In this document: positions 40,971 to 54,381 of the stretch, one piece after another
Layout: each line of letters begins with the position of its first letter
Position numbering within the stretch: the first letter of the stretch is position 1
Assembly (NCBI GenBank): GCA_046597055.1
Contig: JBKJLC010000037.1
Span: forward strand, 32,001-96,000
Source: Kofleriaceae bacterium
Lineage (GTDB): Bacteria > Myxococcota_A > Polyangia > Haliangiales > Haliangiaceae
Direction: 5' to 3'
DNA length: 64,000 bases
Translations under genes and position numbers: made by a program
The notes under the pieces: generated by a model
What the model was told of the DNA's origin: nothing
The model's input: only the letters and a program-made list of their open reading frames with translations
The model's database searches: none

Positions 40971-42110
40971 ATGGACTACGGCTACGTCCCGGACAGAGAC
41001 CCATACCTCAACCGCCTCCGCGTAGTAGTCGACCGTCGTCCCAACACGGCCATGGTGAGTGTGCGGAGCGTCCGCAGTCTCCAGGCCTTCATCCAGCACC
41101 TCGATCGGGCGTCCAGCGTCACGCGGCCGATCGATCACATGGTCGTTGGCGGCCACGCCAATCGCTGGGCCTGGCAGGTGAACCTGTACGGCGCGAGTCA
41201 GGGTACGACCTTCGAGACCATCGTGGACTCGATGGCAGTTCCTGCCAACTCGATCGTGGTGCCAGATGCGGTGATCGGATTCGTTCCGGACCAGCCCAAT
41301 CCATCGGAGCACTTCTTTCATATCAAGGGCTGCAATTTGGGCAAGGCCCCCGCATTCCTCGAAAAGTTGAGCGAGGGACTCGGCGGCCGTCTCAAGATCA
41401 CCGCGCCCAAGCACTTCCATGGCGCTAGCACCCATGGGCGACACCTCTTCGAGTGGATGGCATACGAGTTCGTCATCTTCCAGAAGTCGAGACTAACCAC
41501 CAGGGCCGCACTGGCGGCTGCCTACCACGCAGCGCCATTGGTACTGATCGACGGCCGGACGAAAGTGCCCGAGGCGATGTGGGACAGGTGGCTAAGTCGA
41601 TTCCGAAACATCAATAGAACGCAAAGCGTTCCTGTCTGGTCGAGGCTTGGCGTCTCGCTCGGCCGTCGCGGACGCGTCGAGACGGCGACAGTCCTAACAG
41701 CGACCAGCCCTACGCTAGTCCGTCGGAGCGTCCGATACCCTTCGGAGGCCGACATCCCGACCGATCTGAACGAACGGATGGCTGAGCTGAGGCGGCAACT
41801 GTTGCTCATCGCCATGTACGAGGACACTCACCCCTTCCCAATGTTCAAGAGGCTTGGCTACGCTTCCTTCGAAGACATGATAGATGGCTTGGATTGGAAG
41901 ATTTTCACCAGCCGTCAGGGCGTGTGGCACTTGCTACATTTCGCCGGCAGTCGTTATGAATACCAATTGATGGTGCCGATCATGGATCAGTCCGGTAGCC
42001 TCGAGCCGCACCTCGGCACCATGATCTTCAACCACTGGCCGGCGACCGGCTCCTCGGTGAGTCGAGGGATCGTCGAGTCCGACAGCGCCTTCTTCGCGAC
42101 GGTCCCGTGA
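40971..42110 (+). CDS. hypothetical protein, possible clan-CD/DUF4347-like His-Cys fold
   Basis: HMVVGGHAN and FHIKGCNLG; stop overlaps the next start (GTGA); more A/T at third positions. Confidence 0.7.
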   Translation: MDYGYVPDRDPYLNRLRVVVDRRPNTAMVSVRSVRSLQAFIQHLDRASSVTRPIDHMVVGGHANRWAWQVNLYGASQGTTFETIVDSMAVPANSIVVPDAVIGFVPDQPNPSEHFFHIKGCNLGKAPAFLEKLSEGLGGRLKITAPKHFHGASTHGRHLFEWMAYEFVIFQKSRLTTRAALAAAYHAAPLVLIDGRTKVPEAMWDRWLSRFRNINRTQSVPVWSRLGVSLGRRGRVETATVLTATSPTLVRRSVRYPSEADIPTDLNERMAELRRQLLLIAMYEDTHPFPMFKRLGYASFEDMIDGLDWKIFTSRQGVWHLLHFAGSRYEYQLMVPIMDQSGSLEPHLGTMIFNHWPATGSSVSRGIVESDSAFFATVP

Positions 42111-52623: not shown

Positions 52624-54381
52624 ATGCCGTCCATCACCTACTGGAATCGTCTCGAACCCCGCGCGCGCTCTAGCGATCTTACCGGCGCGCTCGCCGCCCG
52701 CGTGCGCGACCCGGCGTGGTTTCTGGCCCGGCAATGGCAGCTCGGTGAGCTGGCTGGCGAGGATGCCGGCTCGCCGGCCTATGTGCGCATCAACGCCGCG
52801 GTGGCGCCGATGGTCGGATGGCAAGGCGCCACCGGTCCGGCGGTGCCGATGCAGGCCAACGTGCCGCTCGAGCGGGCCGCCCTGGCCGAGCCCATGGCCA
52901 CCGACGACATCTCGCGGTGGGCCGAGCTCGGGACCGTGGTCGACACCTTCCTGCTGTTCTACAACGTCGCCGATCTGCGCAGCCACTGGCTCGAGGCGTT
53001 CCCCATCGGTCCCGCACCGTCCGGTGCGCCGGACGACCCGCGCGCCGCACGGCTGCGCTTGCTGTGGCAGGGTCGCGTGATCAACGGGCTGGCGGTATAC
53101 ACGGCAGCCGGACAGACGCCGACGCCGCCGCCGGCGCCCCCACCCGCGGTGCCGGCAACCGTGCCGTCGACGCGCTGGGCCCAGTGCAACCTCGCCATGC
53201 AGGCGTTCCGCGCCTACGTCAACAGCAGCCATCCCGGCAGCCCGATCGGCGCGGCCGATGCCGCGGCGTGGCGGCCCGAGCGGCTCGAGCACGAGCTGCG
53301 CACCGTCACCGGCGAGCCAGGTGCTACGCCGGGCAGCGTCAGCAGCGCGGTGCTGCAGGCGTTCCCCGACCGTACCGGCGACCTGCCCTGGTACGGCTTC
53401 GACCGCGTCGCCGAGGCGGTCCCGTCCGGGCTGCCGGCGTCGGTGCGCACCGACATCTCGCGCACCGTCATTCCCGGCCCGGTGAGGTTCCGCGGCCAGC
53501 CCAACGAGCGGTTCTGGGACTTCGAGGACGGCCGCGTCGACTTCGGGGCGCTGCGTCTCGACCGCCGCGATCTGACCAGCATGTTGCTGGTCGACTTCAT
53601 GCTCGTCCACGGCAACGACTGGTACCTGGTTCCGTTCGAGCAGCCGGTCGGCACCGTGTGCCGCACCGAGCTCACCGTGGTCGACGTGTTCGGCGTCGTG
53701 ACGCCGGTGCCGCGCGCCGAGGACGCCGACCCGGTCGCTCCCGGCAAGCGCTTCTCCCTGTTCGGGGTCACCGGGCTGGCCAACGGCCACCTGGTGCCCG
53801 ACAGCGTCGCCGGCGTGGTGCAGGACGGACGCACCCTCGAAGAAGTGCGCTTCGTGCGCGACGAGACCGCCAACCTGGCGTGGGCGATCGAGCGCTCCAC
53901 CGAGAGTCATCTCGGACGCGCGCTGCCGGGCAGCGAACGCGCCGGCGCCGAGCCACCGTCGCCGATCACCAGCGGCGTGGCACCGCTCCGGTACCAGCTG
54001 CAGTCGCACGTCCCGGTGCACTGGATCCCGTTCCAGGCGGTGGCGCTGCCGCCGGCCACCAGCGGACAGGTGGTGCTGGAGATGGCGTCGCTCCTCGCGC
54101 CAGAGGGTCCGCCCGGCGCAGCGCTCCACGAGGCGCTGCCGGCCGGCAAGATCTTGCGGCCGTCATCGGTGGCTGGGGCGCCGTACCGCGTTCGCGAGGA
54201 AGAGGTTCCGCGCGAAGGCACCCACGTCATCCGCTTCGCGCGCTTCGCGCGCTCCAGCAACGGCGCCAGCCACCTGTGGGTGACCCGCAAGCGCGTCACC
54301 GGACGCGGCGAAGGCGGGAGCGGCCTTCGCTTCGACCGCACCATCCCTCTCGAGACCGTGGTGCCCGGGACCGATCCGTGA
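52624..54381 (+). CDS. conserved hypothetical protein (585 aa)
   Basis: DPAWFLARQWQLGELAGEDAGSP, RFWDFED, NDWYLVP, RDETANLAWAIE, GEGGSGLRFD. Confidence 0.85.
   Translation: MPSITYWNRLEPRARSSDLTGALAARVRDPAWFLARQWQLGELAGEDAGSPAYVRINAAVAPMVGWQGATGPAVPMQANVPLERAALAEPMATDDISRWAELGTVVDTFLLFYNVADLRSHWLEAFPIGPAPSGAPDDPRAARLRLLWQGRVINGLAVYTAAGQTPTPPPAPPPAVPATVPSTRWAQCNLAMQAFRAYVNSSHPGSPIGAADAAAWRPERLEHELRTVTGEPGATPGSVSSAVLQAFPDRTGDLPWYGFDRVAEAVPSGLPASVRTDISRTVIPGPVRFRGQPNERFWDFEDGRVDFGALRLDRRDLTSMLLVDFMLVHGNDWYLVPFEQPVGTVCRTELTVVDVFGVVTPVPRAEDADPVAPGKRFSLFGVTGLANGHLVPDSVAGVVQDGRTLEEVRFVRDETANLAWAIERSTESHLGRALPGSERAGAEPPSPITSGVAPLRYQLQSHVPVHWIPFQAVALPPATSGQVVLEMASLLAPEGPPGAALHEALPAGKILRPSSVAGAPYRVREEEVPREGTHVIRFARFARSSNGASHLWVTRKRVTGRGEGGSGLRFDRTIPLETVVPGTDP

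Follow-up and report, generated by a model that had tools for sequence, protein, structure and literature searches.

Kofleriaceae bacterium (assembly GCA_046597055.1; Myxococcota_A, Polyangia, Haliangiales, Haliangiaceae) carries on contig JBKJLC010000037.1 a compact operon of five genes built around a protein of the DUF6603 family. The window analysed here is a 64,000-nucleotide stretch of that contig (positions 32,001 to 96,000, forward strand), and the operon occupies window positions 40,971 to 54,381. The analysis indicates that genes 2-5 are a fixed cassette, and that gene 1 occupies a front position which is filled by different enzyme families in related loci. The features of the locus, in window coordinates, are the following.

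40971-42110, plus strand: gene 1, 379 residues from ATG (383 residues from a TTG at 40959), exchangeable front subunit
42107-45505, plus strand: gene 2, 1132 residues, DUF6603 protein
42107-42886, plus strand: N-terminal helical domain of gene 2 (residues 1-260), predicted docking site for gene 1
43355-45052, plus strand: Pfam DUF6603 domain of gene 2 (residues 417-982), Pfam match
45502-48354, plus strand: gene 3, 950 residues, core subunit without a family or a recognised fold
48358-52620, plus strand: gene 4, 1420 residues, largest core subunit, without a family
52624-54381, plus strand: gene 5, 585 residues, fold matching no known one
40803-40970, plus strand: intergenic leader between the divergent FG-GAP-repeat gene and gene 1, presumed promoter region
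39915-40802, minus strand: FG-GAP-repeat gene, divergent from gene 1

The junctions of the operon were read directly. Gene 1 overlaps gene 2 by 4 nucleotides in a GTGA sequence, genes 2 and 3 share an ATGA overlap, and the gene 3/4 and gene 4/5 junctions each consist of TGA, three nucleotides and ATG. These readings agree with an initial annotation of the locus, which had described five co-directional open reading frames of these sizes joined by GTGA or ATGA overlaps or 3-nucleotide gaps; the three peptide blocks that it quoted lie in genes 3, 4 and 5. It had also reported that the proteins lack transmembrane helices and nucleotide-binding or heme motifs, and a crude motif and hydrophobicity scan of the five proteins gave the same picture, with no Walker A motif, no CxxCH motif, and no 19-residue window with a Kyte-Doolittle mean above 1.98. 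No leader peptide was detected in any of the five by a crude scan (not SignalP). No sigma-70-like promoter site was found in the leader region of gene 1, and terminator-like sites are no more frequent than in shuffled sequence.

The G+C content of the window is approximately 72%. Genes 2-5 have the composition of the genome (G+C 70-73%; G+C at third codon positions, GC3, 0.87-0.90), and gene 1 alone is poor in G+C (60.4%; GC3 0.77), the step in composition falling at the gene 1/gene 2 junction. By their GC3 values all five genes are coding-like. No tRNA is present at the locus, no integrase is encoded among the genes of the window, and no flanking repeats of note were found. Because these marks are absent and the core matches the genome in composition, the suggestion that the operon sits on a probable island is unsupported.

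The only family assignment among the five proteins is DUF6603 (PF20248), which matches residues 417-982 of gene 2 with E=4.5e-118 and 395.4 bits against a cut-off of 27. Neither NCBIfam nor PADLOC-DB v2 (0 families at E<=0.1) matched any of genes 1-5, and PHROGs returned a single match, of gene 2 to a virion structural protein family at E=0.081. Searches of PDB sequences with phmmer gave no real match for genes 2, 3 and 4, and PDB profile searches with genes 1, 2, 3 and 5 returned only helical-bundle composition matches to the N-terminus of gene 2. In the ESM Atlas, gene 4 matched only clusters labelled "hypothetical". Pfam scans of long variants of genes 2, 4 and 5 and of DUF6603 giants of about 3000 residues revealed no informative additional domains. 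No paper containing DUF6603, PF20248 or IPR046538 was found in the literature, nor any on leaderless subtilase or tyrosinase giant-protein clusters. The earlier statement that no function has been assigned to this gene set is thus borne out by the NCBIfam, PADLOC, PDB and literature searches. Judged by sequence comparison, none of the subunits belongs to a family that has been characterised, and no system of this composition is known to have been described.

Homologues of the core genes are widespread and remain together. Of 8000 candidates scored against gene 3, 859 are relatives at E<=0.001, every one labelled "hypothetical", and the closest protein relatives are found in metagenome-assembled genomes (MAGs) of Kofleriaceae and Myxococcales. 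A pattern scan of one genome per species (185,579 genomes) recovered at least 664 stretches, at least 649 of which encode a relative of gene 3; the same kind of scan detected no gene 3 relative in 2.9 million viral contigs. Seventy-two loci with flanks were retained from the scan for neighbourhood comparison. By tblastn, genes 2-3-4-5 run in one direction and keep this order in 72/72 loci. All four core genes are present in 58 of the 72, and in the remaining 14 each missing gene lies beyond a contig end. The gap between genes 2 and 3 has a median of -4 nucleotides and is 10 nucleotides or less in 37/42 cases. Since the order recurs in every locus, the arrangement is not due to chance; genes 2-5 are a fixed cassette that is inherited as a block. 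The view of these genes as one conserved unit across unrelated bacteria, and with it the expected co-location of homologues, is upheld by this survey, in which genes 2-5 are adjacent and ordered throughout.

Related loci span at least 12 phyla. The 72 loci come from Myxococcota, Acidobacteriota, Planctomycetota, Verrucomicrobiota, Gemmatimonadota, Bacteroidota, Ignavibacteriota, Actinomycetota, Bacillota, Cyanobacteria, Alpha- and Gammaproteobacteria, Nitrospirota and Chloroflexota, and the family also occurs in single-membrane bacteria (Streptomyces, Arthrobacter and Neobacillus). Within the phylum of the window the distribution is patchy, with 13/401 sampled genomes above the Pfam cut-off, all 13 of them genomes of 6.8-9 Mb. 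The genome of the window has a second, diverged DUF6603 cassette on contig C188 (approximately 400-16900, minus strand; locus L003), which encodes proteins of 774, 1190, 1049, 1417 and 692 residues. The four-gene order is found in both the window and the C188 copy, and the core four proteins of the latter are 44-54% identical to those of the window. The C188 cassette begins with a gene (774 residues) that has no relationship to gene 1; upstream lies a 424-residue ankyrin-repeat gene.

A second DUF6603 architecture occurs in the same phylum, in which the family is represented by single giants of 2994-3763 residues (loci L089, L090 and L091; genomes G109, G244 and G132). By tblastn, no homologues of genes 3, 4 or 5 lie within about 8-11 kb on each side of these giants. 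In L091, a downstream protein of 519 residues weakly shares the N-domain motif of gene 3 (hhalign E=4e-4, prob 35%), and the next genes encode 334 and 1390 residues.

The position directly before gene 2 is variable. Forty-nine genes directly upstream of gene 2 homologues were scanned with Pfam, and they were assigned as follows.

Peptidase_M64: 9/49
PhoD: 7/49
Peptidase_S8: 4/49
Tyrosinase: 2/49
DUF2515: 2/49
Trypsin_2: 1/49
Galactose-oxidase-like (GO-like) E-set: 1/49
No Pfam match: 23/49

By BLAST, 9 of the 23 Pfam-negative front genes group with the S8/trypsin set. An alignment of the S8/trypsin cluster (12 proteins, two of which are second-upstream paralogues) has an invariant His, an invariant Asp and an invariant Gly-Asp-Ser-Gly (GDSG), which may be read as a chymotrypsin-type triad. 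The HExxH motif is kept in the M64-like front genes, and the metallophosphatase motifs in the PhoD-like set. The serine and metallo-peptidases, PhoD-like phosphatases and tyrosinases of the front position are of classes that are normally exported and work outside the cell; a crude hydrophobicity and regular-expression scan found no leader-like N-terminus or twin-arginine motif in the front proteins. Comparison with hhalign revealed no docking domain common to the gene 1 family and the M64-like, PhoD-like and trypsin-like front genes, and no C-terminal motif common to the front-gene families was seen by eye. The front position is a slot swapped between enzyme families. In the window, too, a leaderless gene of this variable, enzyme-like kind stands directly before the DUF6603 gene. 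To call the set "non-enzymatic", as had been done, is misleading, given that in related loci the slot is filled by peptidases, phosphatases and tyrosinases whose catalytic motifs are intact and that gene 1 has invariant His and Cys residues.

Gene 1 belongs to an unnamed family of 693 cluster representatives at E<=0.001, and a Pfam search at E<=10 with 30 members of that family returned no recurrent match. Members of the family stand directly before gene 2 in Arthrobacter ruber and in a Verrucomicrobiae MAG, and a genome of the same genus as that of the window contains two gene 1 homologues, each followed by a gene 2 homologue. The invariant residues of the family are H62, G120-C121, G124, H148, E161 and H287. 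H62 (within VVGGHAN) precedes C121 (within FHIKGCNLG) by 59 residues, and this order and the local motifs may resemble those of clan CD/CPD-like (CPD/DUF4347) peptidases; Pfam and a PDB profile search gave no support for that resemblance. The gene 1 domain is also found fused behind a Peptidase_S8 and DUF5995 region (2082 residues) and behind Peptidase_M64 (681 residues), and it may therefore be either a second catalytic domain or a piece that couples the enzyme to the machine. Two front genes without a Pfam family, L062:3241-6420 (1060 residues) and L070:1-2307 (769 residues), match the Cys-motif region of gene 1 at profile positions 112-154 (E=1.3e-3 and 3e-5, respectively), so the core motif of gene 1 recurs in larger front proteins. 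A subgroup of the gene 1 family (P0149-P0154, P0161, P0217 and others) has an extra N-terminal domain of about 85 residues, which in P0217 weakly matches the E1 FCCH domain (E=3e-6, under the cut-off).

The N-terminal domain of gene 2 follows the type of gene that precedes it. Residues 1-260 score best (151 bits, 33% identity) against an Arthrobacter locus with a gene 1-type front gene, a locus that ranks 44th of 45 on the DUF6603 domain. Co-variation was tested with 496 pairs among 32 loci by comparing N-domain identity at matched DUF6603 identity. Where DUF6603 identity was 0.40-0.45, N-domain identity was 26.5% for pairs with the same front family (n=46) versus 20.8% for pairs with different ones (n=148); at 0.50-0.60 the values were 32.1% (n=22) and 20.0% (n=58). 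For pairs below 0.5, a Mann-Whitney test gave p=3e-26, a value that overstates the effect because the pairs are not independent. As far as these sequence comparisons indicate, the N-terminal bundle of gene 2 appears to co-vary with the type of the upstream gene.

A complex prediction for gene 2 (residues 1-300) with gene 1 gave ipSAE values of 0.73, 0.73 and 0.63, and the best control gave 0.00. The mark used for this score is reached by 116/157 solved complexes and 2/215 mismatched pairs, a calibration that is only approximate because own alignments were used. The runs share at least 52% of contacts, and the predicted local distance difference test score (pLDDT) of the partner is at least 85. 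The predicted contacts involve residues 12-43, 64-69, 116-123 and 147-149 of gene 2 and residues 155-157, 177-178, 209-223, 232-237 and 347 of gene 1. The prediction supports a model in which the gene 1 product docks on the N-terminal bundle of gene 2. The earlier proposal of a multi-subunit assembly is made plausible by the strict synteny and by this passing prediction for gene 1 and the gene 2 N-domain.

The fold of gene 2 was modelled with AlphaFold2 from a 40-sequence alignment (mean pLDDT 77.1; predicted TM-score, pTM, 0.49), and within the DUF6603 domain the means of 10-residue blocks are mostly 84-94. The model consists of a helical bundle (residues 1-230), approximately 39 antiparallel strands (residues 231-870) and a mixed C-terminal part. 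The strands are typically 10-17 residues long, and 26 of them lie within the Pfam DUF6603 domain, forming an up-and-down beta-meander. Foldseek against the PDB returned nine matches at E<=0.001: SlpA/SDBC of Deinococcus (three entries), the FimD usher (two), LptD (two), the PapC usher and ApoB100. The best match was SlpA/SDBC (8agd_A; E=4e-5, prob 0.97, TM-score 0.15); the PapC usher had a prob of 0.99, and the translocon SprA of the type IX secretion system came next at E=8e-3. TM-scores for the gene 2 model ranged from 0.04 to 0.28. In a second alignment with porins, Z reached 13.7 over about 260 residues at a root-mean-square deviation (rmsd) of about 12 Å. A search independent of Foldseek (VIA; 48,161 chains) gave 44 chains at Z>=8, the best with Z 11.9 at an rmsd of 12.5 Å, and 49 of its top 50 rows were membrane beta-barrels, including porins, VDAC/Tom40, TonB-dependent receptors, ushers, MtrB, BamA, SprA, PelB and BcsC. 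Rhs/YD shells did not rank in the VIA top 50, and Rhs, teneurin and Yen-Tc had Foldseek prob values of 0.05-0.12.

On the basis of this model, the DUF6603 region may be read as a very large up-and-down beta-meander in the class of the barrels, a reading that implies neither homology nor a particular barrel, and the DUF6603 protein is probably shaped like a huge beta-barrel. The earlier idea that the DUF6603 chain forms a tunnel thus has support at the level of the fold, the best matches being giant beta-barrels, although the fit is loose, with an rmsd of 10-16 Å.

Genes 3-5 share no clear paralogy as judged by profile comparison; hhalign among the three gave a single weak helical match (residues 94-164 of gene 5 and 769-835 of gene 4, prob 63%). 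Gene 3 is the best conserved core subunit, with a mean column identity of 45% over 45 homologues, and the ESM Atlas model of a gene 3 homologue matches only its own family (TM 0.61-0.78; others <=0.20). Gene 4 homologues range from 1402 to 2371 residues. The model of gene 5 (mean pLDDT 78.4, pTM 0.75) has a helical subdomain and beta-rich domains after its N-terminal 50 residues, and it found no match at E<=0.001 in the PDB (Foldseek) or BFVD; its best Z in the wide VIA search was 5.2, on the helical subdomain, and the match to the TcA protein XptA1 reached only E=0.096. The N-terminal 50 residues of gene 5 are its most conserved stretch yet are modelled with pLDDT below 50, which suggests that they fold on a partner.

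The flanks of the cassette were also considered. Among 108 flanking genes scanned across loci, approximately 2-3 are defence-like and the rest are unrelated housekeeping genes. The defence-like neighbours include an AAA_15/AAA_21 gene and a PycTM gene, each adjoining one locus; in a Phycisphaerae MAG the latter (Pycsar effector-like; L021:20279-20809) comes immediately after gene 5.

Genes resembling those of extracellular contractile injection systems (eCIS) were encountered as well. In three Chitinophaga species (L041, L048 and L055), a Pvc16_N gene, a 407-residue gene and a phage-sheath-family gene directly follow gene 5 and are co-directional with it; adjacency of an eCIS-like cluster to the cassette was seen in the Chitinophaga lineage only. 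The genome of the window has eCIS-like genes at a contig end (C74:17954-23250), comprising Pvc16_N and two sheath-family genes, and these are unlinked to both DUF6603 cassettes.

The firm part of the interpretation is a fixed core of four proteins together with a leaderless, exchangeable subunit of enzyme type; this subunit is paired with the helical head of the DUF6603 protein, to which it is predicted to bind. It is possible, though somewhat short of probable, that the operon as a whole specifies a self-contained multi-protein machine for carrying or delivering an enzyme. Leader peptides are absent from the five proteins, and the complex is therefore presumed to assemble in the cytoplasm, where the four giant core subunits and the exchangeable front subunit would come together. 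The enzyme-like subunit would sit on the helical bundle of the DUF6603 protein, and with support from genes 3-5 the barrel-like domain would serve as a conduit or as a membrane-engaging element. The docked enzyme would then be exported, displayed or delivered to a target, such as a competitor, prey or substrate. Delivery is favoured because the front enzymes are of extracellular classes yet leaderless, because the flanks are not defence islands, and because no nucleoside triphosphatase (NTPase) or sensor domain is present. A more specific form of this proposal is a phylum-spanning export or delivery system, in which a leaderless enzyme sits on the helical head of a cytoplasmic giant beta-barrel and the barrel, together with three other giants and in the absence of an ATPase, doubles as the translocon or injector in single- and double-membrane bacteria alike; in that form we consider it rather unlikely.

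By analogy with toxin complex (Tc) toxins, eCIS and the cargo of type VI secretion systems, the design logic would be that of a conserved delivery device whose payload can be exchanged and whose adaptor matches the payload, achieved with unrelated parts and without an ATPase. The cassette resembles the Tc (ABC) toxins in being an operon of very large leaderless proteins with no ATPase, with a beta-rich, putatively hollow component and a payload, presumably enzymatic, that can be exchanged. In Tc toxins, however, the payload is a fused C-terminal region, whereas in the cassette it would be a separate gene product docked on a helical bundle. A Tc toxin complex was rejected, no RHS, YD or TcA/TcB family having been found in the five proteins with Pfam or NCBIfam. 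The eCIS, including Photorhabdus virulence cassettes (PVC), are likewise leaderless, built in the cytoplasm and supplied with swappable payloads; an eCIS or phage-tail-like particle was rejected, as Pfam detected no sheath, tube, baseplate or AAA+ gene in the cassette. With the giant outer-membrane barrels (PapC/FimD, LptD, SprA and SlpA), the gene 2 model shares an antiparallel meander of all-next-neighbour strands, at least 24 in number (Foldseek E=4e-5 to 1e-3, with prob values as high as 0.99; VIA Z of 11.9-13.7 across about 260 residues). Unlike these barrels, gene 2 has no sequence similarity to them, no signal peptide, a helical bundle of cytoplasmic type at its N-terminus, and carriers that include monoderm bacteria. 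A classical barrel substrate of the beta-barrel assembly machinery (BAM) was rejected for gene 2, which starts with the helical bundle and has no n-h-c leader in a crude scan.

Several observations weigh against delivery of a docked enzyme. The co-variation test is built on non-independent pairs. The predicted interface is no better conserved than the remainder of the proteins among the five gene 1-type loci, with values of 0.40 vs 0.40 for gene 2 and of 0.21 vs 0.38 for gene 1. The barrel likeness is loose, with TM-scores of 0.28 or less at an rmsd of 10-16 Å, and the match may reflect a shared up-and-down topology alone. Gene 1, whose domain is fused behind S8 and M64 peptidases, may be an adaptor rather than the payload enzyme. 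Neither the homologue model of gene 3 nor the model of gene 5 gave a clue from its fold. Finally, the cassette appears in monoderm bacteria, and nothing indicates by what route a leaderless barrel would reach any membrane.

The main alternative, though an unlikely one, is that the operon acts in intracellular conflict of the abortive-infection type. The giants would sense an invader, the docked enzyme would be released or activated, and the beta-domain of the DUF6603 protein would form a suicide pore from the cytoplasmic side. This logic resembles that of bacterial gasdermin-protease operons, in which a peptidase gene lies beside a leaderless protein of the beta-pore type. It is consistent with the lack of leaders in all the proteins, with the modelled pore- or barrel-type fold, and with the number of peptidases in the front position, which is 14/49 by Pfam (9 M64, 4 S8 and 1 Trypsin_2) and approximately 24/49 when the 9 trypsin-like BLAST relatives and one more member of the M64 cluster are included. 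The patchy distribution (13/401 genomes of the phylum), the two copies per genome, the foreign composition of gene 1 and the PycTM and AAA_15/AAA_21 genes that each stand beside one locus would also fit. However, gasdermin is a small oligomerising protein and the DUF6603 protein is one giant chain; there is no match to a gasdermin family or fold, and many front genes are not peptidases. The PhoD-like, tyrosinase and galactose-oxidase-like front genes are unlike the usual defence effectors, the proteins contain no NTPase or nucleic-acid-sensing domain, and only about 2-3 of the 108 flanking genes are defence-like. None of the five proteins matched PADLOC at E<=0.1, and a known anti-phage defence system was rejected, as no PADLOC-DB v2 model matched.

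A slighter chance is given to a hydrolase complex of the cytoplasm that compartmentalises itself: the giants would form a cage or gate around a dangerous enzyme and so keep intracellular degradation under control, in the manner of Tricorn/TPPII or of cargo-loaded nanocompartments. Leaderless enzymes with intact catalytic motifs, an adaptor-like domain that co-varies with the enzyme, a predicted complex and the absence of a transport ATPase or membrane helix would all fit such a device. Against it, Pfam and PDB searches revealed no likeness to encapsulins or known cages, the enzyme classes are typically extracytoplasmic, and no targeting peptide common to the front families was seen by eye or with hhalign. 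Least probable, and very unlikely, is an envelope or surface-layer structure in which a DUF6603 barrel like Deinococcus SlpA anchors surface enzymes after export by an unrecognised route: SlpA/SDBC is the top Foldseek match (8agd_A, E=4e-5, prob 0.97), but its TM-score is only 0.15, gene 2 has no signal peptide, and the cassette is rare and patchy rather than lineage-wide and occurs with very different envelope types.

Other features of the window lie on both sides of the operon. Upstream (28663-37310) is a cluster of genes for large multihaem c-type cytochromes (MtrC/MtrF-like, with cytochrome c7/c3 repeats, and NapC/NirT-like). At 38017-38116, within an open reading frame of 347 residues without a family, are imperfect direct repeats with a spacing of about 21-33 nucleotides (units like GAGCGGGCCAACG). 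On the minus strand at 55674-58906, a protoglobin-coupled histidine kinase lies beside a sigma-54-dependent response regulator; NnrS, HlyIII and TerC genes come next.

The significance of the cassette lies in its breadth and its modularity. Relatives of gene 3, nearly always within the cassette, occur in at least 649 species genomes from Myxococcota, Acidobacteriota, Bacteroidota, Actinomycetota, Bacillota, Cyanobacteria, Proteobacteria, Planctomycetota, Verrucomicrobiota, Gemmatimonadota, Nitrospirota and Chloroflexota, and the named families end at one DUF. An invariant core combined with an adaptor domain and a hydrolase or oxidase that can be swapped is the signature of delivery and conflict systems, here assembled from unrelated parts and without an energy-coupling protein. 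The contact predicted between residues 155-237 and 347 of gene 1 and residues 12-149 of gene 2 is testable, as is the proposed DUF6603 fold, and cultivable carriers are available in Chitinophaga, Streptomyces, Neobacillus, Nannocystis and Bradyrhizobium. Should the cassette prove to be a defence system, it would represent a new class, one whose pore former is a giant single chain. If instead it exports or injects the docked enzyme, it would constitute a new principle of secretion or delivery and possibly a programmable enzyme carrier.

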